From contig CAZXPD010000007.1 in assembly GCA_964643065.1 (NCBI GenBank), positions 136 through 64,135 on the forward strand: a DNA stretch of 64,000 nt, given 5' to 3'. This stretch comes from an uncultured Gammaproteobacteria bacterium (GTDB taxonomy: Bacteria > Cyanobacteriota > Vampirovibrionia > Gastranaerophilales > CAZEDP01). This document shows, piece after piece, positions 4,871 to 36,351 of this stretch. The notes below the pieces were generated by a model. The model worked only from the letters and a program-made list of their open reading frames with translations. It was not told the origin of the DNA and made no database searches. How positions within the stretch are numbered: position 1 is the first letter of the stretch; every line of letters begins with the position of its first letter. Both the position numbers and the translations under genes were made by a program.

Positions 4871-7495
4871 GTGCCAAATTTAATGACGCAAGATTCTGCA
4901 CTTGAACATAATTATAATCGTGAATTCCTGAATAAAATTGCATTCGGGAATGCGAATGATGCGTTTATACTTTTAGAATCAAATGAAAACGGACTTTCTG
5001 AAGAAGACGTTATTAAAAAACAAAAACAATTCGGATTAAACGTAATTTCAAACAGCAAAGAAAAGCATCCGGTAATAATATTTTTTATGCTGTTTGTGAA
5101 TCCTCTGGCAATTCTTTTACTGTGTCTGGCTACAGTTTCTATTATTATGAATGACATCAGAACCGCAGTTATTCTGATATTTATGGTTTTACTAAGCGTT
5201 GTTTTAACGTTTATTCAGGAATACAGGTCAGGCAAAAGCGCCGATAAATTAAAAGCAATGATTCGAATATACTCAATTGTTAAGCGAAGAAAGACAAATG
5301 AGGATAAATACCCCGAAATTCAAAATGTACCTATTGCGGAATTAGTCCCCGGAGATATAGTTATATTATCTGCTGGGGATTTAATACCCGCAGATTTAAT
5401 GATATTAAATTCTAAGGATTTATTTATAAATCAGTCAACACTTACCGGAGAATCTCTTCCCGTTGAGAAAACATCCGATATTCAAAATACAGGCACCATC
5501 AGCCCCTTTGATTATGAAAATATTTGTTTTATGGGGAGCACAGTAGTAAGCGGCAGCGCAGTCGGACTTGTAATAGTCACGGGGCAAAAAACTTTTTTCG
5601 GTCAAATTGGAGAAATAATAGCAAAGCATCAAAAAATAACAAATTTTGACGAAGGAATTAAAAAATTCACTTGGCTTATGATTAAATTTATACTTGTTAT
5701 GGTTCCGCTTGTATTTTTAATCAACGGGTTCGGCAAAGGAGACTGGATTGAAGCCTTTTTATTTGCTGTTGCCGTCGGAGTCGGATTAACGCCGGAAATG
5801 CTTCCTGCTATCGTAACAATTAATCTTTCTCAAGGCGCTATTACAATGTCGAAAGAGAAGGTTATTGTCAAAAGATTAAATTCTATTCAAAATTTTGGAG
5901 CAATAGATGTATTATGCGCAGATAAAACCGGGACTATCACTCAAGATAAAATAATTTTAGAAAAACATGTGGATTTATTCGGAAATGAAAGTCAGAAGGT
6001 TTTCTCATACGCTTATCTTAACAGTTATTATCAGACAGGATTAAAGAACCTTCTTGACAGAGAAGTTTTAAAACATTCAGAAACTCATTACCCGTCGGCA
6101 ATTCAAAATAAATTCAAAAAAATTGACGAAATCCCTTTTGATTTTGTCCGAAGAAGAATGTCCGTTATACTTCAATCAGAAGACAATAAAAATATTCTCA
6201 TATGTAAAGGCGCCGTTAAAGAAATTTTTGACGTCTGCGTTAAAGCAGAAACAAAAACAGAAAAGTTTAACCTTGATAAAAACCATTTGGAAACTTTAAA
6301 CAAAGTTGTAGAAGAGTTGAACTCCGACGGGTTTAGAGTAATAGCAGTAGCTTACAAAGAGTTCACCGATAGTAAGAATTCCTACACCAAAGATGATGAA
6401 TCTGACTTAACGATGCTGGGTTATATAGCATTTCTGGATCCTCCCAAAGAAACCGCAGCCAAAGCAATGAATGATTTATCCAAACTCGGTATAAAGGTAA
6501 AAATACTGAGCGGGGATAATGACACGGTTACTAAAAAAATCTGTCGAGAAGTAAATTTACAGTTTGACAAGGTATATACCGGAGCGGATTTGGAAAATAT
6601 GACAAATGACCGCTTTTCAGCATCAGTAGAGGAAGGTTCTGTTTTTGCAAAATTGACACCCGAACAAAAAGCTAAGATTATAACCGCCCTTCGGCAAAAC
6701 GGTCACGTTGTAGGTTTTTTAGGCGACGGCATTAATGACTCGGCTGCATTAAAAGCATCCGACGTCGGGATTTCTGTTGATACAGCTGCAGATATAGCAA
6801 AAGATACGGCGGATATTATTTTGCTCGAGAAAGACCTTATGGTCTTGAGTAAAGGTGTGATGAGAGGAAGGCAGGTTTTCGGAAACATAATCAAATACAT
6901 AAAAATGGGAGCAAGCTCTAATTTCGGTAATATGCTCAGTATCATCGGCTCATCATTATTTTTACCATTTTTGCCGATGCTGCCAATTCAAATCATAGCT
7001 AACAACATGCTTTATGATATTTCACAGACAACTATTCCGACTGATAATGTTGATGAGGATTATCTTAAGCAGCCCCGAAAATGGGATATAAGTAACATTA
7101 CAAAGTTTATGTTTTTCATGGGACCTGTCAGTTCACTTTTTGACTATGCAACTTTTTTCAGTTTGCTTTATTTTTTAAATTGCTTCAACAACCCTGCATT
7201 GTTCCAAACAGGATGGTTTGTCGAATCTGCCGTATCTCAGATATTAATCATACACGTAATCAGAACTGCAAAAATCCCGTTTATTGAGAGCAGAGCAAGT
7301 ACTCCATTAATAATAAGTTCTGTATTAATTGTATTGTTTGCAATATGGCTGCCGTATTCACCTTTTGCCGATAGTTTGGGTTTCGTTAAGATACCGGTTG
7401 AATATTGGACAATACTGTCTATAATTTTGCCCTGTTATATTATTTCAACAACAGCGGTAAAAAACCTTATCGGCAAGAAATACAATATAATCTGA
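4871..7495 (+). CDS. mgtA: Magnesium-translocating P-type ATPase
   Basis: 874 aa with the DKTGTITQ phosphorylation motif, TGES, GDGINDS and MgtA-type N- and C-terminal TM topology. The ATG at 4883 is an alternative to the GTG at 4871. Confidence 0.9.
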   Translation: MPNLMTQDSALEHNYNREFLNKIAFGNANDAFILLESNENGLSEEDVIKKQKQFGLNVISNSKEKHPVIIFFMLFVNPLAILLLCLATVSIIMNDIRTAVILIFMVLLSVVLTFIQEYRSGKSADKLKAMIRIYSIVKRRKTNEDKYPEIQNVPIAELVPGDIVILSAGDLIPADLMILNSKDLFINQSTLTGESLPVEKTSDIQNTGTISPFDYENICFMGSTVVSGSAVGLVIVTGQKTFFGQIGEIIAKHQKITNFDEGIKKFTWLMIKFILVMVPLVFLINGFGKGDWIEAFLFAVAVGVGLTPEMLPAIVTINLSQGAITMSKEKVIVKRLNSIQNFGAIDVLCADKTGTITQDKIILEKHVDLFGNESQKVFSYAYLNSYYQTGLKNLLDREVLKHSETHYPSAIQNKFKKIDEIPFDFVRRRMSVILQSEDNKNILICKGAVKEIFDVCVKAETKTEKFNLDKNHLETLNKVVEELNSDGFRVIAVAYKEFTDSKNSYTKDDESDLTMLGYIAFLDPPKETAAKAMNDLSKLGIKVKILSGDNDTVTKKICREVNLQFDKVYTGADLENMTNDRFSASVEEGSVFAKLTPEQKAKIITALRQNGHVVGFLGDGINDSAALKASDVGISVDTAADIAKDTADIILLEKDLMVLSKGVMRGRQVFGNIIKYIKMGASSNFGNMLSIIGSSLFLPFLPMLPIQIIANNMLYDISQTTIPTDNVDEDYLKQPRKWDISNITKFMFFMGPVSSLFDYATFFSLLYFLNCFNNPALFQTGWFVESAVSQILIIHVIRTAKIPFIESRASTPLIISSVLIVLFAIWLPYSPFADSLGFVKIPVEYWTILSIILPCYIISTTAVKNLIGKKYNII

Positions 7496-7513: not shown

Positions 7514-8752
7514 TTACTTAGCATTATTAATTATCCTGAAAGAATTGAACATGCCGTTTTGTGCCTTTTTATGATTGGGATCCAGTGCTAAGCATTTTTT
7601 AAAATTATTTATGGCTGCTTCGTGGGCACCGTTTTGAGCCAACCTGTTTGCCAGATTATAGTAATACTCGGGGTCATCGTCATACTGATAAGGCGCACCG
7701 GTTTTTATTGTAGTAGTTACGTTCTGCCCTGTATTATTTTGAACATATGCTTCTTTTGCCAGTTCAACGGCAATTGTAAGTGACAGCCTTGCATTATGAT
7801 GGTCAGGTTGAAGAAACAAGACTTTTTCAAACTGCTTAATTGCATCCTCATACTTACCTTGTTCGGCAAAAAATAATCCCGTAGAATAGTATTTTTCGGG
7901 GTCCTCATTTCTGCTGCTGTTTATTTGAGTAATGATGAAATACAATGAGCTTCTTTCAGCATTATGGTTAGGATTGATTTCAAGACACTTTTTAAAATCT
8001 GCTAATGCAGCCTCATAGTCACGATTTAATTTGTGTTTTACTCCCGAATTGAAATACACCTCTGCATCTTCAGTTTTCTTTTCTGATTGAGGCTCCGGCG
8101 TTTCAGTTTTATTCTGTGCCGCTCTCATTAGCTCAATGGTGATTTCCCGAGCTAATCGAGCTTCGATGTTATCCGGATCCAACTCAAGGCATTTTCTGAA
8201 ATTATCTAACGCTTCTTCAAAATGGTTCTGCTCTGCAAGAAAAAGACCTATACTGTAATATTTTGCCGGATCATCAAGAGTTTTTTCGTTAATCGTTCCC
8301 ATAAGATGGGCTAACGAGTCTTTTATGTACTGATTTTCAGGAGCAAGTAAAAGAGCTTTGTTTATGCATTCGCAGGCGTGTTCCAAATCGCCCATTTCAC
8401 TGTAAACAACCCCAAGATTATAATAGCCGTTAAAATCTAAAGGCTTTATTCTTACAGAATTGTTAAAACAGTCTATTGCTTTGCTGTAATATTTTTTTTC
8501 AATGTAAATTAAACCGAGATTATAATGCGATTCGCTGTCGTTAGAATTAAACTGAAGAGCTTTTTGAAAACTTTGAACAGCTCTGTCCAAATCTCCCATT
8601 TTGTACTGGACAAGTCCGATATTGTAATAGACCTCATCTCTTTCCGGATTTTCTGCAACACATCTTTCAAAAGACTCGAGAGCAAGCTCATATCTACCCT
8701 CCTCAAAGTATTTTGAACCTGCATCATAAAAAATATTGTTTAAATTATCCAT
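7514..8752 (-). CDS. TPR-repeat protein
   Basis: 412 aa of repeated 34-residue TPR units (..YYNLGxxYxxxGxxxxAIxxFxKALxLxPN..). Confidence 0.85.
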   Translation of the reverse strand: MDNLNNIFYDAGSKYFEEGRYELALESFERCVAENPERDEVYYNIGLVQYKMGDLDRAVQSFQKALQFNSNDSESHYNLGLIYIEKKYYSKAIDCFNNSVRIKPLDFNGYYNLGVVYSEMGDLEHACECINKALLLAPENQYIKDSLAHLMGTINEKTLDDPAKYYSIGLFLAEQNHFEEALDNFRKCLELDPDNIEARLAREITIELMRAAQNKTETPEPQSEKKTEDAEVYFNSGVKHKLNRDYEAALADFKKCLEINPNHNAERSSLYFIITQINSSRNEDPEKYYSTGLFFAEQGKYEDAIKQFEKVLFLQPDHHNARLSLTIAVELAKEAYVQNNTGQNVTTTIKTGAPYQYDDDPEYYYNLANRLAQNGAHEAAINNFKKCLALDPNHKKAQNGMFNSFRIINNAK

Positions 8753-14323: not shown

Positions 14324-14387
14324 ATATTTGTCAACATTTTCATAATTCTGTTTCCAAATTTCTCAATAAATGCTTAAATATTAACAG

Positions 14388-14589
14388 CTCCATGCTGTTG
14401 TCCGTTTTGATCCTACAAATTTTCAAAAGGGAGCTCTATCTCCGATGATATTGAAGTAAACCTAACGCGTATTAGGAAACGGAAAGTATCAGGGGGGGCA
14501 CCCACCTATCTGAGGAAGATAGGTTTCAAAACCTCAGCTGTATGGAGTGATTTTTTAAAAAAGCTTCCCATTTATACGGGAAGCTTTTG
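14388..14589 (+). ncRNA. Candidate structured RNA: a ~160-nt rod-like fold plus its own intrinsic terminator. The family is not identified.
   Basis: Closing helix CTCCAT/GCTG (14388-14397) pairs with CAGC..ATGGAG (14535-14547). A second helix GTTTTGA pairs with TCAAAAC. There is an internal 7-bp hairpin CCTATCT-GAGGA-AGATAGG. Terminator AAGCTTCCC/GGGAAGCTT lies at 14561-14586 with a T run. A TATTAA -10-like box lies at 14376-14381. Confidence 0.4.
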
Positions 14590-24007: not shown

Positions 24008-24997
24008 ATGGATTTAAAGATAAGATGTATCAATACAACAACAGACTCAGACGGTACAATATATGGCAAGTTTGCAATTGAGCCGTTAGAAAGAGGCTAC
24101 GGGACAACAATCGGCAACTCATTAAGACGCGTGCTGCTCTCTGGTCTTGAAGGCGCAGCAGTCACTTCGGTAAGAATTGAAGGTATAACTCACGAGTATA
24201 CATCCATACCGGGAGTTGTCGAAGACGTAATTGATATCATGCTCAATTTAAAAGGGCTTGTTATTAAGTCAGAAAGCAAAGAACCGCAGCATTTGAGACT
24301 CGACGTTGACCGCAGCGGTCCTGTTTTCGCTTCTGATATTCAACTTCCTGCCGGAGTCAAAATCGTAAATCCGGACTGGATTATAGCCACCATAGCAGAA
24401 GGCGGCGGACTGCATGCTGATATAGTTGTAGAAACAGGAAAAGGCTATCTTACATCAGACGTATTAAAAGACAGCAAATCCGCGATGCCAATTGACATGT
24501 TGCCGATTGACGCAGCATTTATGCCTGTAAGAAGAGTCAGCTACACGGTTGAAAACACACGCGTTGGACAAATCACAGACTATGACAAACTCATATTAGA
24601 AATCTGGACAAACGGCAGTATTGATGTAACAACGGCATTAAGCTCTGCAGCAAATCTTCTTATAGAACACTTTGTTCCGATGGCTCAATTATCAGGTCCC
24701 GCAGCAATGGTAGGTACAGTACCCGTTGTACCGGAACCAAAAGCAGAACCTCAAACACCTACAATCGGAATTGAAGAACTGGAACTTTCAGTTCGAGCTT
24801 ATAACTGTTTAAAACGCGCAAGTATTAATTCCTTAACAGAATTGCTTGTGAAATCAGAGCATGATTTGCTCAATATAAAGAACTTCGGTAAAAAATCAGC
24901 TGACGAAGTTATTGAAAAGCTTCACCTTTTTGGTTTAAAGCTCGCTCCAAATCCCGAACCTGTTGAAGGTGAAGAGGAAGAAGAAGCTGTTTCGTAA
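24008..24997 (+). CDS. rpoA: DNA-directed RNA polymerase subunit alpha
   Basis: 329 aa with an N-terminal assembly domain and a C-terminal domain (IEELELSVRAYNCLKRA.I..L.EL). Confidence 0.97.
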   Translation: MDLKIRCINTTTDSDGTIYGKFAIEPLERGYGTTIGNSLRRVLLSGLEGAAVTSVRIEGITHEYTSIPGVVEDVIDIMLNLKGLVIKSESKEPQHLRLDVDRSGPVFASDIQLPAGVKIVNPDWIIATIAEGGGLHADIVVETGKGYLTSDVLKDSKSAMPIDMLPIDAAFMPVRRVSYTVENTRVGQITDYDKLILEIWTNGSIDVTTALSSAANLLIEHFVPMAQLSGPAAMVGTVPVVPEPKAEPQTPTIGIEELELSVRAYNCLKRASINSLTELLVKSEHDLLNIKNFGKKSADEVIEKLHLFGLKLAPNPEPVEGEEEEEAVS

Positions 24998-25025: not shown

Positions 25026-25478
25026 ATGAGACACCAGTGCAAAAGACATCAATTGAACAGACCGCAGGATCAGAGAAAAGCTCTGTTAAAATCATTAGCG
25101 ACATCTCTGTTCACATATGATGAAATAACGACAACAATGGCAAAAGCTAAGGCTTTGAAAGAATATGCAGAACACATTATCACAATCAGCAAAAATGATG
25201 ATGTTCATTCAAGAAGACAAGCATTGAAATATATCCATGACCTTTCAACAGGTTATGCAATATGTTCAAAATGCGGTAAAACCGTTTCCACTGCTGAACT
25301 CAAAGACGATAAAGCTTGTGAATGCGGCGAAAAAATGATGGACATGACAGTACTTCGCAAACTGTTTTCAAAAATTGCAAAAAATTATGAAAACAGAAAC
25401 GGCGGATATACAAGAATTTACAGATTGCCACCAAGACGCGGAGACGCATCAGAAATGGCGTTAATTCAGTTAGTATAA
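25026..25478 (+). CDS. rplQ: 50S ribosomal protein L17 with an internal Cys4 insertion
   Basis: L17 termini are present (MRHQCKRHQLNRPQDQRKALL.. and ..NGGYTRIYRLPPRRGDASEMALIQLV). An extra segment of ~35 aa contains C80-x2-C83-x14-C98-x-C100. Confidence 0.9.
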   Translation: MRHQCKRHQLNRPQDQRKALLKSLATSLFTYDEITTTMAKAKALKEYAEHIITISKNDDVHSRRQALKYIHDLSTGYAICSKCGKTVSTAELKDDKACECGEKMMDMTVLRKLFSKIAKNYENRNGGYTRIYRLPPRRGDASEMALIQLV

Positions 25479-28021: not shown

Positions 28022-29104
28022 ATGAAACAAATACTCGACTACTCAAAGCTCTTTGATATTCTTAGAGATGTATATTCCGCTTTACCTTGTTATTTAGGAC
28101 ACGGTCATTCTTTTCCGCCTCTCAGATATTCACTTGAGCTGACCTACAAATGCAACCTGAACTGTCCCTTTTGCTATATCGGCGAATCAAGGAACAAAAA
28201 CGAACTAAACCCTGAGGAATGGCTGAATCTAATAAAACAAATTCCGCCGTGGAGTCTGATTACTCTAGTGGGAGGCGAACCTCTCGCAAGAAAAGATTTC
28301 CCGGAAATCTTTTCCGCTGCGGCAAGAAGAGCAAAAGTAAACGTGGTAACTAACGGTGTTCTTTTAAATGAAGATATTATTGATCTTTTTATTAGTAGCA
28401 AGCTCTTATTGCTTAGCGTCTCTCTTGACGGTTACGGTAAAAATCATGACAAGAACCGCGGGAAAGAAGGCATATTTGAAACTATCATGAGCAATCTTGA
28501 AAAACTCAATTCTAAAAGGCAGGGTAAGAATCGCCCAATGGTGGATATTAAGACAATTGTTCTTGAAAACAACCTTGATGATTTGATAAAAATTTACAAA
28601 CTATGCGCTGAAATGAATTTTGAATTTATGTCCATAGCATTTCTCAGGGCAAATAATTTAAAACAAAATTCAGTCCTTAGAGAGAGCTTTGGTGAAGAGT
28701 TTTATAAAACTCAATATGATATCAAACCGTATTTTGATATCGAGCATTTTAAGGAGGTTTATAAAGAGCTCAACGCACTTTCAAATAAAGCTACGACAAC
28801 TGTCAGATTCGCTCCAAAATTTCCTTCAAATAATGAACTGAACCAAATAGAGAAATTTTTTGCAAATAGTGACAAGTGCGAGTCAGAAATTTATAATCCA
28901 TGCCTTTATCCATGGTCTAATATTCATATAAACCCTGAAGGTGATATCTATCCCTGTTTAGCATATAAAATAGGTAATGTAAGAAATACGGGCATCATGG
29001 AAGTATGGAACAGCAGGAAATTCGCTAATTTTAGAAACAAACTTAAGAAACAAAAAGTATTTTCGGCATGCCAAATGTGCTGTGAACTTAAGGTAAAGAA
29101 GTAA
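28022..29104 (+). CDS. Radical SAM enzyme with a C-terminal SPASM/twitch-like Cys cluster
   Basis: 360 aa with CNLNCPFC (CxxxCxxC) and a GGEPL motif. C-terminal cysteines lie at CLYPWSNIHINPEGDIYPC ... CQMCC. Confidence 0.85.
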   Translation: MKQILDYSKLFDILRDVYSALPCYLGHGHSFPPLRYSLELTYKCNLNCPFCYIGESRNKNELNPEEWLNLIKQIPPWSLITLVGGEPLARKDFPEIFSAAARRAKVNVVTNGVLLNEDIIDLFISSKLLLLSVSLDGYGKNHDKNRGKEGIFETIMSNLEKLNSKRQGKNRPMVDIKTIVLENNLDDLIKIYKLCAEMNFEFMSIAFLRANNLKQNSVLRESFGEEFYKTQYDIKPYFDIEHFKEVYKELNALSNKATTTVRFAPKFPSNNELNQIEKFFANSDKCESEIYNPCLYPWSNIHINPEGDIYPCLAYKIGNVRNTGIMEVWNSRKFANFRNKLKKQKVFSACQMCCELKVKK

Positions 29105-29114
29105 AGCTAAAATT

Positions 29115-30536
29115 ATGGAAAAGAAAAAAATATTATTAATATATCCGCCAAGCGGAATAATGAATAGAGAAGACAGATGTCAACAGCCGGTAAAGGAGCT
29201 TATTGTTATTCCTCCTCTGCCGCCGACTGATTTGCTCTATATGGCTGCCATAGCCGAAAAAGCCGGTTGCAACGCAATGGTTAAGGATTACAGTCTTGAT
29301 GCTCAAACAGGAATTGATTTAGTCAGAGACCTTAATGAGTTCAAACCGGATTTTATTGTTATAAACGTAACCACACCCACAATTAAAAGCGACCTTCAGT
29401 ACTGCACAATTGCAAAAGAAATCCTGCCCTCGATTCAAATCATTGCCAAAGGTGCACACTTTCTGACCTTTGCTGAAGAGACTTTAAAAGCATTTCCGAA
29501 TTTGGACTTTGCAATTAAAGGCGAGCCTGAGCTGACTCTCGAAGAACTTCTTAACGGCAAAAATGCCCAAGACATTAAGGGATTAGTTTGGAGAAACAAA
29601 GATAAAATAATAATCAACCCCGACAGAGCGTTTAATGAAGATTTAGATTCACTGCCCTATCCTGCAAGACATCTGGTAGATAATTCTCGTTTCAGACGTC
29701 CCGATAACAACAGGGTGCAAGCGGTAATAAAAGTTTCAAGAGGCTGTCCGTATCATTGTTTCTTCTGCCTTGCAACGCCGGTTTCAGGAAAGAAAGTCAG
29801 GACAAGAAGTCCTGAAAATATTTTAGGCGAAATTAAAGAATGCATCGAAAAATATAATATAAGAGATTTTATATTCTGGTCGGATATTTTCAATTTTGAC
29901 AGAAATTGGGCTGTTGAACTTTGCGAAGCCATCATAAAATCGGGACTGAAATTCACATGGGCTGCCAATACCAGAGCAGATACCGCAGATTTGGAACTGG
30001 CAAAACTCATGTACAAAGCCGGCTGCAGACTCGTCAGTATCGGCGTTGAAAGCGGCAATCAGGAAATGCTTGATAAAATGGGTAAAAAAACTACCCTTGA
30101 GCAGATACGGCAAACCGTTAATGATTTTAAAAAAGCCGGTATGAAAATTTATAACTATTTTGTCATCGGGCTTCCATGGGAAACAGAAGAAACAGTCAAT
30201 GATACCGTTGATTTTGCGATAGAGCTGAACAGTGATTTCATCAATTTTTATACGGCTGTCGCATTCCCGGGAACAAAATTTTACAATTATGCAGTTGAAA
30301 ATAGTCTTGCTGACTCATCAAACGTGTTAGAATTATTTAATGATGTATATTATTATCCGGTTACAAGCGGTCATCATTTAAGTAAAGAAAGGATATTTGA
30401 ACTTCATAAAAAAGCGGTAAAAAAGTATTACCTGAGACCTGAATTTATACTTAAAACGCTGCTATCCATACGCTCAATCAAAGAATTTCAAAACTATACA
30501 AAAGCAGCATTAGCAATAATAAGAAAAAGTGACTAA
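29115..30536 (+). CDS. B12-binding-domain radical SAM enzyme (class B)
   Basis: 473 aa with an N-terminal Rossmann-like B12-binding region (ILLIYPP.., DFIVINVTTP) and a radical SAM motif CPYHCFFC. It lies 10 nt downstream of the preceding radical SAM gene. Confidence 0.88.
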   Translation: MEKKKILLIYPPSGIMNREDRCQQPVKELIVIPPLPPTDLLYMAAIAEKAGCNAMVKDYSLDAQTGIDLVRDLNEFKPDFIVINVTTPTIKSDLQYCTIAKEILPSIQIIAKGAHFLTFAEETLKAFPNLDFAIKGEPELTLEELLNGKNAQDIKGLVWRNKDKIIINPDRAFNEDLDSLPYPARHLVDNSRFRRPDNNRVQAVIKVSRGCPYHCFFCLATPVSGKKVRTRSPENILGEIKECIEKYNIRDFIFWSDIFNFDRNWAVELCEAIIKSGLKFTWAANTRADTADLELAKLMYKAGCRLVSIGVESGNQEMLDKMGKKTTLEQIRQTVNDFKKAGMKIYNYFVIGLPWETEETVNDTVDFAIELNSDFINFYTAVAFPGTKFYNYAVENSLADSSNVLELFNDVYYYPVTSGHHLSKERIFELHKKAVKKYYLRPEFILKTLLSIRSIKEFQNYTKAALAIIRKSD

Positions 30537-30597: not shown

Positions 30598-31854
30598 ATG
30601 ATAAATAAGACGACATTTCCAAACGGTTTAAGACTGATAACCGAATATATGCCCGAGACATATTCAGCAACTGTTATGGTTTGGATTGATGCGGGTACGA
30701 ATGTAGAAAAGGCCGAGCATAACGGTATTTCACATTTTATAGAACATCTTGTATTTAAAGGAACAACAAATCGCACATCAAAGGATATTGTGCAGACAAT
30801 AGAATGCACCGGCGGAAGTATAAATGCATTTACTGACAAAGAAACTACCTGTTATTATGCAAAAGTGCTCGGGAAAGACACTGCAACGGCAGTTGACATT
30901 TTGCTCGATATGACATTTAACTCCAAATTCGAGGATCATGATATTGAGCTTGAAAGACAGGTTATACTTGAAGAAATCAAGATGTATGAAGATGCGCCCG
31001 ATGAACTTGTTCATGACCTTTTAATTAAATCATTCTGGGATGAGCACCCGCTTGCAAGACCTATTACAGGTTCGATAAAAACTGTAAAAAACATAACAAG
31101 GAATGATATTTTAAACTTTGCAAACGACTACTACACTCCCGACAACATAATTATTTCAGTTGCAGGCAATTTTAATGAAGAAGAAATCATTAATCTTATC
31201 AAAGATTTCACAGAAAATATCAACAGCAGATGTAAAATCAGACAAGATATCCTACCTGTTGCAAAGCCGTTAATTAATGTTAAAAGAAAAGACATAGAAC
31301 AGGCTCATATTTGTATCGGCACCAAAGCAGTTTCCGTCCTCGATAAAGACAGATATGCGCTGGCAATAATTGACGTTTGTTTAGGCGGCGGAATGTCATC
31401 AAGGCTGTTTCAGACAATCAGAGAGCAGCGGGGACTTGCCTATTCCATCAACACATACGAAGCTCTTTATCGTCCGTCAGGGATATTCGGTATTTATTCA
31501 GGAGTTAACAGCCAAAACGTTAATGAGGTTATTCAATTAACTTATGAAGAAATAGAGAAATTTAAATCCGAGGGACCTGCTGAGGAAGAATTCATTCAGG
31601 CAAAAGAACAGCTCAAAGGAAGCCTTTTAATCGGGCTTGAATCCACTAAATACAGAGCAGGAAGAAACGGCAGATCAGAATTGTACTTTAACAAAATCAT
31701 CAATGCCGAGGAGCTCTGCTCTGAAATTGACAACGTATCAACAGTTGACATTAAGAGAATGGGCGATTACATTTTTAACGAAACTTCAACAGCGGTTTAT
31801 ATACTTGCTCCGAAAAGTTACAAACACAGGGGGGGAAACTTTGGCAGAAATTGA
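30598..31854 (+). CDS. M16 (pitrilysin-family) zinc peptidase
   Basis: 418 aa with the inverted zinc motif HFIEH (HxxEH) and a downstream E (LEEIKMYED). Confidence 0.9.
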   Translation: MINKTTFPNGLRLITEYMPETYSATVMVWIDAGTNVEKAEHNGISHFIEHLVFKGTTNRTSKDIVQTIECTGGSINAFTDKETTCYYAKVLGKDTATAVDILLDMTFNSKFEDHDIELERQVILEEIKMYEDAPDELVHDLLIKSFWDEHPLARPITGSIKTVKNITRNDILNFANDYYTPDNIIISVAGNFNEEEIINLIKDFTENINSRCKIRQDILPVAKPLINVKRKDIEQAHICIGTKAVSVLDKDRYALAIIDVCLGGGMSSRLFQTIREQRGLAYSINTYEALYRPSGIFGIYSGVNSQNVNEVIQLTYEEIEKFKSEGPAEEEFIQAKEQLKGSLLIGLESTKYRAGRNGRSELYFNKIINAEELCSEIDNVSTVDIKRMGDYIFNETSTAVYILAPKSYKHRGGNFGRN

Positions 31855-32284: not shown

Positions 32285-32521
32285 TATTTTTTTACAAAGT
32301 TTTTTGTTTTTGTAGGCAAAACTCAATTGAGCTGCGAAAACATCTAGGATAAATTCTGTAATAAATTATGCCCCATAATATATTGACAACTAACGAGACT
32401 ATACCAAAGATAATCTCTGTTTATTATCAATTTTATAAAAATATGCAAATAGGAATTAAATATGATATACTGTTTTTCTTAAAAAGTTCTAAGGTATGGT
32501 TAGCTACAAGAGGGTTTGGAA

Positions 32522-32704
32522 ATGGAAGAAGAAAAAAGAATGACTCAGCATCAAATGCCGCAGGAAGAAGAAATGTCTTCAAAAGAAGAAAATCAATGCA
32601 ATCATTGGCATTCTGAAGCTACAAATTCCTGTTCCGGAAGGTGTATGCTCAAAGCCAATCATTCTTCAAACCATGGCTGCGGAATTTGCCACGGTCAATG
32701 GTAA
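32522..32704 (+). CDS. Small acidic-leader, Cys/His-rich peptide (60 aa)
   Basis: The ATG at 32522 is preceded by AGAGGG 7-8 nt upstream. There is an extended -10-like TGATATACT near 32464-32472, and a strong terminator follows directly. Sequence: MEEEKRMTQHQMPQEEEMSSKEENQCNHWHSEATNSCSGRCMLKANHSSNHGCGICHGQW. Confidence 0.5.
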   Translation: MEEEKRMTQHQMPQEEEMSSKEENQCNHWHSEATNSCSGRCMLKANHSSNHGCGICHGQW

Positions 32705-33143: not shown

Positions 33144-34265
33144 ATGAATACTAAGGAAAAATTGCAGACTTTGTTTAAGAAAGCTGACATTAGGATATTG
33201 GATGATTTTTCAAACGCAGAAGAACGTCCGTGGGACTTAAGGGTCCTCAACAATAAGTTATATGACAGGATATTCAGTTCCGGGTCACTGGGTCTTGGAG
33301 AAGCATACATAGAACAATGGTGGGACTGCAGCGAACTTGAAAATTTAATATATCGAATTTTAAAGAAAGATTTGCACAGGTTTCTAAACATAGCAGACGT
33401 TATGCTGCTCATAAAATCAAAAATAATGAATCTGCAATCGTTAAAAAGGGCATTTGAGGTCGGGATAAAACACTATGACATCGGAAACGAGCTCTATGAA
33501 AATATGCTTGACGGCAGAATGCTTTATTCATGTGCTTACTGGGAAAATTCTGCCAATCTGGAGGAAGCACAGGAAGCGAAATTGGAACTCATCTGTAAAA
33601 AGCTTAAAATTGAACCCGGAATGGAAGTTCTTGACCTTGGCTGCGGTTGGGGCAGTTTAGCCAAATATATATCCGAAAAACACAATGTAAAAGTCACCGG
33701 AATATCTGTATCCAAAGAGCAAATCAAGTATGCAGATGATATTTGTGCCGGCAATGACGCATATTTTTATTTGGAAGATTACAGAGATTTTGCCAAAAGA
33801 AAGTTAAAATTCGACAGAATAGTTTCTGTCGGAATGTTTGAGCATGTCGGTTTTAAAAATTACCGGACGTATATGAAGTGCGTCAACGATTGCCTCAAGC
33901 CCGACGGACTTTTTCTGCTGCACACAATCGGAAACAGCAGCACAACTAAGTTTGGTGACGGATTTTTAAATAAATATGTTTTCCCGAACGGAGTTCTGCC
34001 GTCACTGCAGCAAATAGGCAAAGCATCAGAGATGATTTTTAACATTGAGCATCTTGAAAATATCGGACCTCACTACGAAAAAACATTATTGGCGTGGTAT
34101 GACAATTTTGAAAGAAATTGGGATAAAATTACATCACTAAATCCCAAATATGATGAAAAGTTTTACAGGCTTTGGAAATATTATCTGCTCTCATGCGCAG
34201 GGGCATTCAAAGCAAAACATATTCATGTATGGCAGATAATTTTCTCGATGTATAAACCCTTTTAG
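33144..34265 (+). CDS. cfa: Cyclopropane-fatty-acyl-phospholipid synthase family methyltransferase
   Basis: 373 aa with the SAM motif VLDLGCGWGSLAKY and CFA-synthase-type flanks (HYDIGNELY, MFEHVG, W.YYL..CAGAF). Confidence 0.88.
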   Translation: MNTKEKLQTLFKKADIRILDDFSNAEERPWDLRVLNNKLYDRIFSSGSLGLGEAYIEQWWDCSELENLIYRILKKDLHRFLNIADVMLLIKSKIMNLQSLKRAFEVGIKHYDIGNELYENMLDGRMLYSCAYWENSANLEEAQEAKLELICKKLKIEPGMEVLDLGCGWGSLAKYISEKHNVKVTGISVSKEQIKYADDICAGNDAYFYLEDYRDFAKRKLKFDRIVSVGMFEHVGFKNYRTYMKCVNDCLKPDGLFLLHTIGNSSTTKFGDGFLNKYVFPNGVLPSLQQIGKASEMIFNIEHLENIGPHYEKTLLAWYDNFERNWDKITSLNPKYDEKFYRLWKYYLLSCAGAFKAKHIHVWQIIFSMYKPF

Positions 34266-34354
34266 AAACATGTATTTTTATAATGCCCGACTTTTATGTA
34301 TAATTAGTTTCAATAAGTTTATATCAGAGCAGAGAGTGTTATGGAGGAATACAA

Positions 34355-34852
34355 ATGACAGAATTTTCAAGCAGCGACTTAAAAGCAAGACTTGCTCAAA
34401 TACAAATAGAACTCAATCATTCAGAAAATCTTGAAAAAAATCTTACGGAAAAATTATCTGACGAAGAAAAGGAATTTATTGCACAAAACCGCATCAGATA
34501 TACTGATCTGGTAATTGAAGCAAACGACATTGAAAATCTTTTAGGCAGCAAAGGGGAAACAATATCTATTGATGAGCTCAAGCAAAAATATGCCGGTATA
34601 AAGGAGCTGTTAGCCGATCCCAAGCCGAGAGAGGCTTCGAATGCACTTGAGCAACGTGCAAAAAGATGCTGGACAAGATGCGTAACTTGCATTTCCTGTA
34701 CAACATGCATTACCAATTCAGGTCTTCGTCCAAATGAACATTTCTGCTACCCTGCAGGATCGAGAGAATACATCTGTAATCCTAAATCTGAAACTACGGG
34801 TCAATATGAAAATGGTAAAATTGAAGACCTGAAAATCAAATGGAACAAATAA
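34355..34852 (+). CDS. Candidate RiPP precursor or radical SAM substrate protein (165 aa) with a Cys-free helical leader and a Cys-rich C-terminal region
   Basis: Strong ribosome-binding site GGAGGAA. All 7 Cys lie in the last 61 aa. Core block RCWTRCVTCISCTTCIT lies at 34664-34714. The next gene starts 11 nt after the stop. Confidence 0.65.
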   Translation: MTEFSSSDLKARLAQIQIELNHSENLEKNLTEKLSDEEKEFIAQNRIRYTDLVIEANDIENLLGSKGETISIDELKQKYAGIKELLADPKPREASNALEQRAKRCWTRCVTCISCTTCITNSGLRPNEHFCYPAGSREYICNPKSETTGQYENGKIEDLKIKWNK

Positions 34853-34863
34853 GTTTATAAGTT

Positions 34864-36315
34864 ATGATAATTACCGAAAATAAATTTCTTCGTCTCTCAG
34901 ACAACTGGCGTCTCAGAGTTGAAGGAGGACATTCAATATTATATTCTTATGATCCCGAGGTTCTTGTGTGGTATCCACTGTCAAAAGAAATGACAGCCGG
35001 TCTTCTGTTAATGGACGGCAAAAAGACATTAAGCGAAATCAAAAAAATATTGCTGTTTCTATTTGATGATGTACCTGAAACATTCATAAAAGAACTTCTC
35101 GAAAGCCTTATGCTGCTTTCGTCGAATGAACAAAACCCAAATCACATTGTAGAATATTCTGACTTAGCGTTTTCAGAAACTCACAGATATGATATTGAAA
35201 ATATACTCAAAAAGATGCAAACTTACACACAGGAAGAATATGACAGAGTTGAATCTGGATTATTGCTTTCACCGTTAAATTTAACTATTATGCCGACTGA
35301 AAAATGCTTTACAAACTGTGTATACTGCTATTCCCAACGAAAAGAAACAAAAACCGACGAAATGCTTTCTCTCGAGAGATGGTTTGAAATTATTGACGAG
35401 GCTTCTGAGTTGGGAATTGAACTGGCAGTCCTGACCGGCGGAGATCCAATGGCATATCCTCATATAATACCCCTGCTCCAAAAGCTCATAGAAAAAGGAT
35501 TTTTGTTTGTAATACCGTCCAAATCATTTATTTCTAAAGAACTTGCACAGAGAATGGCTGATATCGGTATGAGGAAAGCATGGAATCAGATAAGCATAGA
35601 TGCCGTTTCCAACGATATTGCAAAGAAAATGGTCGGGGTTGAGAATTATGCAGAATTAGCTTTCGAATCAATTCAAAACATGATTGAGGCAGGTTTAAAT
35701 GTAAGAGCCAACTGTGTAATGACGCCTATTAACTGTTCAGAGGCACTGGAACTTGTAAAAAAATTAGACGAACTCGGTGTAAAAAAAATCAGCATCGCAG
35801 GTTACGGAAGGTCCTATTACCGTCATAACGACGATTTATTTCTTACCGATGAGCAGATGGAAGTTATTAACTCTGCTGTTGATTCAATAAAGAATGAATT
35901 GAATGCAGAAATAAGCTGCAATATGTCTCGAAGAGATTATAGCGATGCATCTGTCGAACAAAGAACGCAAGAATGGAAAGAACGAGCAAAATGCTCAGGC
36001 GGTCGTTCAAGCATGGTAATAGCTCCGTCCGGAAAAGTTACACTATGCGAACAAATGCCCTGTGAAGACGAATTCTTCGCAGGAGATCTAAGTCATCAAA
36101 GCATTATGGAAATATGGAATTCAGAGCGTATAAAATTCCTGATGGCTCCTCCCGTAGAAATGTTTAAAGGAACAGCATGCGAAAAATGCGAAGACTATGA
36201 AAAATGCATGAATTACTATGGATATTGCTTCAGAGACGCACTGTTTACATACAACACAGTTTACTCTCCCCCTCCGAATTGCCCTAAAGCACCACCGGGC
36301 ATTCGTTTGCAATAA
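34864..36315 (+). CDS. Radical SAM/SPASM peptide-modifying enzyme with an N-terminal PqqD-like RRE domain
   Basis: 483 aa. The N-terminal ~90 aa resemble a PqqD-like recognition element (..LSKEMTAGLLLMDGKKTLSEIKKIL..). It has the radical SAM motif CFTNCVYC and C-terminal SPASM cysteines (CSGGRSSMVIAPSGKVTLC, CEKCEDYEKCMNYYGYC). Confidence 0.88.
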   Translation: MIITENKFLRLSDNWRLRVEGGHSILYSYDPEVLVWYPLSKEMTAGLLLMDGKKTLSEIKKILLFLFDDVPETFIKELLESLMLLSSNEQNPNHIVEYSDLAFSETHRYDIENILKKMQTYTQEEYDRVESGLLLSPLNLTIMPTEKCFTNCVYCYSQRKETKTDEMLSLERWFEIIDEASELGIELAVLTGGDPMAYPHIIPLLQKLIEKGFLFVIPSKSFISKELAQRMADIGMRKAWNQISIDAVSNDIAKKMVGVENYAELAFESIQNMIEAGLNVRANCVMTPINCSEALELVKKLDELGVKKISIAGYGRSYYRHNDDLFLTDEQMEVINSAVDSIKNELNAEISCNMSRRDYSDASVEQRTQEWKERAKCSGGRSSMVIAPSGKVTLCEQMPCEDEFFAGDLSHQSIMEIWNSERIKFLMAPPVEMFKGTACEKCEDYEKCMNYYGYCFRDALFTYNTVYSPPPNCPKAPPGIRLQ

Positions 36316-36326
36316 TTCAAAATAGA

Positions 36327-36351
36327 AAGACCTCTTAAAGAGGTCTTTTTA
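36327..36351. terminator. Bidirectional intrinsic terminator
   Basis: AAAGACCTCT-TAA-AGAGGTCTTT perfect 10-bp stem with a T run. Confidence 0.8.

Follow-up and report, generated by a model that had tools for sequence, protein, structure and literature searches.

The subject of this report is a pair of adjacent genes on a 64,000 nt stretch of DNA (the window), comprising forward-strand positions 136-64135 of contig CAZXPD010000007.1 (assembly GCA_964643065.1), from an uncultured bacterium of the Gastranaerophilales (Melainabacteria). The first gene specifies a 165 aa cysteine-rich protein and the second a 483 aa radical S-adenosylmethionine (rSAM) enzyme with a SPASM domain. The two are considered, with high confidence, to be a genuine precursor-maturase pair. 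They probably represent a self-contained unit of a previously uncurated rSAM/SPASM family that resembles the systems for ribosomally synthesised peptides with post-translational modifications (RiPPs), and in which a run of cysteines would be converted to a ladder of local thioether rings. Taken by itself, the chemistry of thioether formation at cysteine is, on balance, favoured. The parts of the pair are:

34355-34852, plus strand: precursor gene (165 aa), an open reading frame (ORF) read from the sequence
34355-34666, plus strand: leader region (aa 1-104), predicted to be helical, without Cys; from the AlphaFold2 (AF2) model and the family alignment
34667-34714, plus strand: Cys-run core (aa 105-120, CWTRCVTCISCTTCIT), where modification is presumed to take place; from conservation, and disordered in the AF2 model (predicted local distance difference test score, pLDDT, <50)
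34715-34852, plus strand: tail module (aa 121-165, ...FC-x9-C-NPKSETTGQ...KIKWNK) and stop codon; from family conservation
34864-36315, plus strand: maturase gene (483 aa); from the ORF, domain searches and AF2 model
34864-35133, plus strand: predicted N-terminal recognition element (aa 1-90), a PqqD-like winged helix; from the AF2 model and Foldseek
35305-35328, plus strand: radical SAM motif C148-x3-C152-x2-C155 (CFTNCVYC, residues 148-155)
35992-36282, plus strand: SPASM domain, with seven conserved Cys for two auxiliary [4Fe-4S] clusters

Conservation and distribution of the gene pair

An initial annotation, made from the sequence of the window alone, had proposed that homologues of the 165 aa protein are accompanied by an adjacent rSAM gene, and this held in both search directions. 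A word-index search with the precursor found three relatives; nine precursor-family proteins, eight of them new, were listed when 1.84 billion cluster representatives were searched exhaustively with a profile. Scanning of metagenomes with the four closest precursor sequences gave four loci, and a scan with an alignment of a subset of precursors returned nothing that could be confirmed. In every precursor homologue that was traceable to its locus, namely P0001, five independent relatives (P0050, P0051, P0052, P0054 and P0055) and all four metagenome loci, the enzyme gene lies immediately 3' of the precursor.

From the side of the enzyme, one genome of each species was scanned, which gave 191 relatives, and 80 loci were fetched. 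All those with an enzyme of at least about 35% identity and readable upstream DNA (L008, L009, L011-L019 and L021-L024, with L020 a weaker case) have a same-strand ORF of the precursor family directly 5'. Except for that of L008, which is truncated and is the only one without a Cys run, these ORFs specify proteins of 89-244 aa that combine a long Cys-free leader with a run of cysteines. The hosts belong to the Bacteroidia, Gammaproteobacteria, Eubacteriales, Lutisporaceae, Chlorobi, Desulfurivibrio, Anaerolineales, Arenicellales, Desulfuromonadales, Terriglobales and Chloroflexia, and include the archaeon Methanothrix. Counted at the level of phyla, at least nine groups carry the pair, among them Melainabacteria (the window), Desulfobacterota, Chlorobi, Chloroflexi, Acidobacteria, Firmicutes and one archaeon.

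Among 20 non-redundant loci, the enzyme and the precursor are the only recurring genes. No protease recurs around the pair in these loci, and ABC transporters occur in four of the 20, so that the lack of a protease or exporter, reported initially for the cassette of the window, is a trait of the whole family. The two genes are separated by 1-150 nt across loci, which suggests translational coupling. In the window, the precursor stop codon ends at nt 34852 and the maturase ATG begins at nt 34864, leaving a gap of 11 nt (GTTTATAAGTT) in which no Shine-Dalgarno sequence is found, as had been noted at the outset. Two loci of one lineage (L093 and L094, both nt 701-2188) carry two tandem, diverged copies of the precursor gene before one enzyme gene; in L093 the reading of the enzyme is broken into two pieces, a frameshift being the probable cause.

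The precursor protein and its family

All seven cysteines of the 165 aa protein lie within residues 105-141 (C105, C109, C112, C115, C118, C131 and C141), and residues 1-104 contain none, in agreement with the first description of the ORF. The probability that all seven would fall in the last 61 residues by chance is about 8e-4, and a chance origin of the clustering is ruled out by its conservation in the family. The leader finishes with ...LADPKPREASNALEQRAKR and is followed by the Cys run CWTRCVTCISCTTCIT and then by FCYPAGSREYIC. In the AF2 model, helices occupy residues 6-29, 36-65, 72-78, 82-87 and 90-101 (pLDDT 71-89), and the protein is predicted to be disordered from residue 103 to its end at 165. 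The model thus gives the precursor a helical, folded leader, some 100 residues long, and an unstructured core behind it. Comparison with a 90%-identical relative (L001) revealed 20 synonymous and no nonsynonymous codon changes in aa 105-165, as against 28 synonymous and 16 nonsynonymous changes in the leader. These counts show that the ORF is coding, and that its Cys-rich part is under very strong constraint. The precursor has no match in Pfam or NCBIfam.

Motif statistics were compiled from 29 precursors, and invariance of residues was assessed in an alignment of 15 family members. The proteins (89-244 aa) contain 5-16 Cys and have leaders of 61-136 aa. The strongest leader element, Y-x-x-[IV]-K-x-L-L-x-D, is found just before the core (aa 79-88 in the window protein), and E55, K83 and L85 are the invariant leader residues. 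In the core, invariance is complete at C105, C109, C112 and C118, and nearly complete at T107 and C115; cysteines and one Thr are the only invariant core residues across the family. The run itself consists of 5-15 Cys (three in the weak case, L020), with Cys-Cys spacings of 3 in 90 cases, 4 in 84 and 5 in nine, mostly alternating between 4 and 3. This corresponds to a heptad unit, C-[VI]-T-x-C-x-x, which in some lineages is expanded in tandem (e.g. CVQCVTD three times). Val, Thr and Ile, all beta-branched, make up 73% of the residues directly after Cys (+1). The C-x-(S/T) pattern first seen in the run is correct for the window gene but does not define the family: Thr or Ser occupies +2 in 56% of cases (otherwise chiefly Gln, Glu or Asp), and it is the 4/3 spacing that is characteristic.

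A second, optional module, C-x9-C-[RNS]-P-K-x-[DE]-x-G-x-Q...[VI]-x-W, forms the tail of about half of the members, including that of the window. Members without it end 5-16 residues past the last Cys; five of these (L021, L023, L012, L014 and L007) end within 5-11 residues, and L021 and L023 after only five. No conserved cleavage motif is evident at the leader-core junction, which reads KR|C in the window and GS|C, KD|C, KE|C or RS|C elsewhere. The exceptional locus, L008 (Bacteroidia metagenome-assembled genome (MAG), JAPLDR010000087.1, nt 5708-5923), has a truncated, precursor-like ORF of 71 aa 5' of an intact enzyme that is 51% identical to that of the window. It retains the leader motif KYASLK and the tail C-x9-C-KPKIDIGDQ...VQW, and lacks the run. 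This points either to decay of the gene or to a tail module that is a substrate in its own right.

The maturase

A word-index search with the enzyme returned 45 homologues at E≤1e-10, mostly of about 460-500 aa, of which 39 were aligned. The CFTNCVYC motif and the full set of SPASM cysteines, both recognised in the initial annotation, are well supported. Pfam PF04055 (Radical_SAM) matches aa 143-286 at 3.9e-20 and PF13186 matches the SPASM domain at 1.8e-9; among the 39 homologues the three motif cysteines are invariant, and C377, C395, C439, C442, C448, C455 and C473 are invariant or nearly so. The AF2 model, built on the same alignment, has a pLDDT of 94.1 and a predicted template modelling score of 0.91. 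A Foldseek search of the PDB returned SuiB first (E 7e-20), then SkfB, PqqE and CteB, and the alignments to SuiB and CteB were near full length (431-481 columns). SuiB forms a carbon-carbon (C-C) crosslink between Lys and Trp. The family profile, compared with PDB sequences, ranked PqqE first (1e-29), then SuiB (8e-23), SkfB (1e-21) and CteB (1.6e-12). The anaerobic sulfatase-maturing enzyme (anSME) was at rank 16 in the structural search and was absent at E≤0.01 from the profile search. The enzyme thus groups with peptide maturases that contain a recognition element, and not with anSME or heme-related enzymes.

The N-terminal domain is modelled as a small unit (residues 15-86; pLDDT about 90-97) of three strands (15-20, 23-28 and 36-39) and three helices (41-49, 56-66 and 72-86). 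A profile of the N-terminal 100 residues gave PqqD (5sxy) as its best PDB match; at E=0.1 this is not significant, but the two are colinear on L-x-L-x-DG-x-RT-L. For the PqqD-like RiPP recognition element (RRE) proposed initially, support thus comes from the predicted structure and, weakly, from sequence.

No NCBIfam or Pfam model was matched at its cut-off by the enzyme, by 15 of its relatives or by 11 precursors. The 25 NCBIfam matches listed for the enzyme, the weakest at 38.5 bits, are headed by PqqE (85.7 bits, cut-off 381) and MftC (75.5 bits, cut-off 265), followed by MoaA, NirJ2 and AhbD (65-67 bits), AlbA (51.3, cut-off 850) and StsB (48.5, cut-off 625); WgkB is also among the weaker ones. 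No pqq or mft pathway genes are found near the pair. On this evidence we assign the enzyme to an uncurated clade of RRE-rSAM-SPASM peptide maturases.

Proposed modification and fate of the product

In the mechanism we propose, the PqqD-like RRE would dock the leader, most likely at the Y-x-x-IK-x-LL-x-D segment before the core. The radical SAM site would take hydrogen from a core residue, and a neighbouring Cys thiol would be joined to that carbon with the assistance of the two SPASM auxiliary clusters. Repeated along the run, the reaction would produce small, local thioether rings in a ladder, comparable to those of ranthipeptides or sactipeptides.

The main argument for cysteine as the reactive group comes from more distant relatives of the enzyme. 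The partners of those at 28-33% identity are short, Cys-rich peptides of different types, otherwise unrelated in sequence, and some of these are encoded 3' of the enzyme. In Bacteroidales MAGs (L048, L052, L075 and L085) the peptides have a GG-type leader and CxxxC repeats (e.g. ...slggaCKNGCKSCKTECKSC). Those of L032, L033 and L036 end in C-x-C-M-I-C-[VW], and these loci, together with L035 of the same group, carry a second rSAM/SPASM gene downstream. Cultured hosts were met only among distant relatives, in Parvimonas micra (P0043) and Anaerobacterium chartisolvens DSM 27016 (L042). None of the enzymes at 28-33% identity reaches a curated NCBIfam model. The curated 'CXXX-repeat target' maturase family, considered as a home for the Bacteroidales relatives, was dropped since no model matched at E≤1e-25. 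Richness in Cys is the one constant of the partner peptides across the enzyme superfamily, so that Cys is likely to be the group that reacts.

The topology of the rings is suggested by members that end five residues past the last Cys (L021 and L023). As these have no downstream acceptor region, the crosslink partners would lie inside the repeats, which favours small local rings, as in repeat-type ranthipeptides, over a sactipeptide hairpin. At position +2 in the Cys runs, Thr, a plausible thioether acceptor, is found more often than any other residue (96 of 212 Cys), and it serves as the acceptor in characterised SCIFF ranthipeptides (PMC10352776). Given that there is no conserved cleavage motif, protease or exporter, the product may retain its leader and stay inside the cell.

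Several observations weigh against the formation of a thioether ladder in the run. By sequence, the enzyme is nearest to PqqE and MftC, which form C-C bonds, and not to the thioether enzymes CteB, AlbA and StsB. Close similarity among ranthipeptide synthases is reported (PMC10288494), and the present enzyme is not similar to them. Models for SCIFF, PapB (NF047865), CcpM and the Cys-every-fifth enzyme CefB are not among the 25 NCBIfam matches listed for the enzyme (nor is QhpD); the CcpM, CefB and PapB models are present in the library, as they matched another protein of the window, and none of the three was found on 15 enzyme relatives at E≤1e-20 or 1e-25. The Pfam PqqD model (PF05402) gave no match to the enzyme at E≤1. 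The alternating 4/3 spacing corresponds to the a and d positions of a helical heptad, which would bring all thiols onto one face of a helix and would suit metal binding. Lastly, L008 keeps the enzyme and the tail module without a run, so the run may not be the only, or the essential, substrate.

Alternative explanations

An unlikely alternative is that the same two genes form a precursor-maturase pair with a chemistry other than thioether formation: C-C crosslinks as made by PqqE, SuiB or MftC, epimerisation, or modification of the Val, Ile or Thr beside each Cys, the cysteines of the product then acting as ligands for metal or pairing in disulfides. The enzymes closest in sequence (PqqE and MftC) and the best structural match (SuiB) all make C-C bonds, and the preponderance of beta-branched residues at +1 would provide a repeated target. 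There is also a precedent for repeated modification of Val by rSAM/SPASM enzymes, in that TvgB converts Val to cyclopropylglycine repeatedly within a repeat motif (PMC9062424). Against this, only Cys and the one Thr are invariant in the core, and enzyme clades down to 28% identity all pair with peptides that have little in common except their Cys content. The latter pairing indicates that Cys is the shared reactive group.

A less probable explanation is that the 165 aa product is an intact intracellular protein that binds metal or an Fe-S cluster through a/d cysteines that line one side of a helix or of a coiled coil; the enzyme would install a limited modification or a cluster, and no peptide would be released. 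The long leader that is predicted to fold, the alternation of Cys spacings, the missing cleavage motif, protease and exporter, and a conservation of core and tail that is as extreme as in cofactor-like systems are all in its favour, and QhpC/QhpD provides a precedent at the level of a protein. Yet the Cys region is predicted to be disordered rather than helical, a repeat number that varies from 5 to 15 is unfit for a defined cluster site, and the enzyme bears a peptide-recognition domain typical of RiPP maturases. A broader version of the idea, speculative and somewhat unlikely, is that the protein of about 165 residues stays intact in the cell and that its 4/3 Cys stripe, perhaps with the C-x9-C tail, is made by the rSAM enzyme into a poly-thioether or metal-binding prosthetic structure. 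If true, it would be a protein-level cofactor or a redox/metal module, similar to QhpC in logic and unrelated to it, that has spread horizontally among anaerobes from Melainabacteria to Methanothrix.

That the adjacency is incidental, with a non-peptide SPASM enzyme (for cofactor, heme or sulfatase maturation) beside an unrelated small ORF, is scarcely credible: the weak matches to MoaA, NirJ2 and AhbD do score similarly to those of peptide maturases, but this reading is effectively refuted by the strict co-occurrence and gene order across at least nine phylum-level groups, and the short gap, the RRE-like N-terminal domain and the poor showing of anSME also speak against it.

Comparison with known systems

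Of the characterised systems, the SCIFF pairs (CteA or Tte1186a with CteB or Tte1186) have several traits in common with the thioether-ladder unit proposed here. They too are minimal two-gene cassettes of a Cys-rich precursor and an RRE-rSAM-SPASM enzyme with no dedicated protease or exporter. In both, conservation of the core is high, the cassette has a wide and scattered occurrence among anaerobes, and Thr could plausibly act as acceptor; CteB is among the top structural matches. The initial annotation had pointed out that the substrate is longer than SCIFF-type peptides and has a different core pattern, and both differences are upheld. SCIFF peptides have about 45 residues and six Cys, whereas the window precursor has 165 aa and seven Cys (89-244 aa in the family), with a folded leader domain, helical and some 100 residues long, and a core in which a Cys run is spaced 4/3. 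In addition, no SCIFF model is among the 25 matches listed for the enzyme, none was matched by the precursor, and the family profile scored CteB far below PqqE (1.6e-12 vs 1e-29).

Freyrasin/PapB and the NxxcB ranthipeptides are alike in the repetition of a short Cys motif, one enzyme being expected to make a local ring at each repeat. Their motifs, C-x3-D and N-x-x-C, are found in short peptides, unlike the C-[VI]-T-x-C-x-x unit, with two Cys per heptad, of the present family. The sactipeptides (thurincin H/ThnB, AlbA, SkfB) have a run of CxxC-spaced donor cysteines (C-x2-C-x2-C-x2-C in thurincin H) and an rSAM-SPASM enzyme with an RRE, and SkfB is a top structural match. In these, however, the Cys run is N-terminal and the acceptors are C-terminal, in a hairpin, a layout that is not seen here: a downstream acceptor half is not a feature of the family, as the members that end shortly past the last Cys show, and the AlbA, StsB and SkfB models were not matched at their cut-offs.

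PqqE/PqqA and MftC/MftA provide the best sequence matches of the enzyme, and share with it the RRE logic and a conserved, non-hypervariable precursor. The scores are far under the cut-offs, and the precursor has neither the Glu-x3-Tyr of PqqA nor the C-terminal Val-Tyr of MftA. In quinohemoprotein amine dehydrogenase, the rSAM/SPASM enzyme QhpD puts several Cys thioethers into QhpC, a polypeptide that stays part of the protein; here, no qhp genes are found near the pair, and the analogy is one of logic alone. The NHLP and Nif11 long-leader precursors of cyanobacteria and others likewise have an unusually long, folded leader before a short core, but there is no sequence match, no double-Gly site and no peptidase-containing ABC exporter. 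The anSME class differs in that the solved anSME structure has no RRE, and in its substrate motif, C/S-x-P/A-x-R; in the precursor, C131-Y-P-A-G does not fit C-x-P-x-R and is not conserved in relatives.

Genomic context and other features of the window

The window has a GC content of 36%. Its RpoA (nt 24008-24997) shares 85% identity with the RpoA of ACD20, a groundwater genome, and 72-75% with those of Candidatus Gastranaerophilales MAGs, which places the window in a member of the Melainabacteria (Vampirovibrionia), a non-photosynthetic sister group of the cyanobacteria. An identical cassette was found in no species representative of the genome collection. The signals that flank the pair are:

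34277-34304, plus strand: promoter-like TTTATA-16-TATAAT, with 10 of 12 consensus matches (a consensus match alone)
34343-34347, plus strand: Shine-Dalgarno sequence GGAGG, 7 nt before the precursor ATG, read from the sequence and kept in L001
36326-36348, strand unassigned: hairpin with a GC-containing stem of 10 bp, between the convergent maturase and chemoreceptor (MCP) genes

The promoter-like element (TGTATAAT) is also present 5' of the orthologous gene in L001. The hairpin was first described as a strong terminator that closes the pair. A hairpin is indeed present, and the terminator scan listed it on the minus strand only. Read on the plus strand, it is followed by TTATTAAT, which suggests that it probably terminates both convergent genes.

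Directly 5' of the pair, nt 33144-34265 (plus strand) carry a gene resembling cyclopropane fatty acyl phospholipid (CFA) synthase, which was considered as a tailoring methyltransferase. This role was rejected because the gene specifies a genuine CFA synthase (NF008686, 507 bits, cut-off 400), and because a comparable gene occurs near the enzyme in only one other examined locus (L088), on the opposite strand. Farther upstream is a group of genes for an rSAM/SPASM protein (nt 28022-29104, 360 aa), a B12-binding rSAM protein (nt 29115-30536, 473 aa, HpnJ-like at 247 bits, cut-off 578) and an M16 peptidase (nt 30598-31854, YfmH-like at 138 bits, cut-off 250). None reaches a curated cut-off, there is no obvious adjoining precursor, and the group is kept in the close relatives L001-L003. 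It was excluded as a part of the same cluster because a dUTPase and other genes intervene between this group (28.0-31.9 kb) and the pair, and because it is absent from all loci outside the Melainabacteria.

Three other features of the window were recorded. A small Cys/His-rich ORF (nt 32516-32704, plus strand, 58-62 aa, ...QCNHWHSEATNSCSGRCMLK..NHGCGxCHGQW) has no family match and is kept in the 90%-identical relative (L001, nt 8166-8342); it could specify a metal-binding peptide or another precursor. Ribosomal protein L17 (nt 25026-25478, plus strand, 150 aa) contains an internal CSKCG...x14...CECG segment that looks unusual for a bacterial L17 and is possibly a zinc-ribbon insertion. The sole Rfam match in the window is 6S RNA (nt 14384-14551, plus strand, RF00013, 58.7 bits, gathering score 46.4).

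Novelty and significance

Many uncharacterised families of rSAM/SPASM enzymes and precursors exist, and the combination of an RRE-rSAM-SPASM maturase with a Cys-rich precursor is of a known kind. Within that kind, the present family is distinct, uncurated and apparently undescribed, with its long folded leader, its heptad Cys run of variable length and its optional conserved tail. The suggestion that the pair belongs to an uncharacterised class agrees with the outcome of the model searches and with the literature: no paper of the library searched contains the core motifs, and searches by concept likewise returned nothing on the family. The precursors, at 89-244 aa, are too long for the searches usually used to find such peptides, and one published survey restricted the enzymes examined to 340-450 aa (PMC9062424).

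If the two genes work as proposed, the leader, some 100 residues long and predicted to fold, would be usable for studying leader recognition, and heptad Cys repeats of variable number would be suited to testing how one enzyme makes many crosslinks. As in SCIFF systems, a highly conserved product occurs without export machinery. The presence of the pair in Melainabacteria, a methanogen and common anaerobic phyla makes a role in metal handling, redox processes or signalling as plausible as an antibiotic one.

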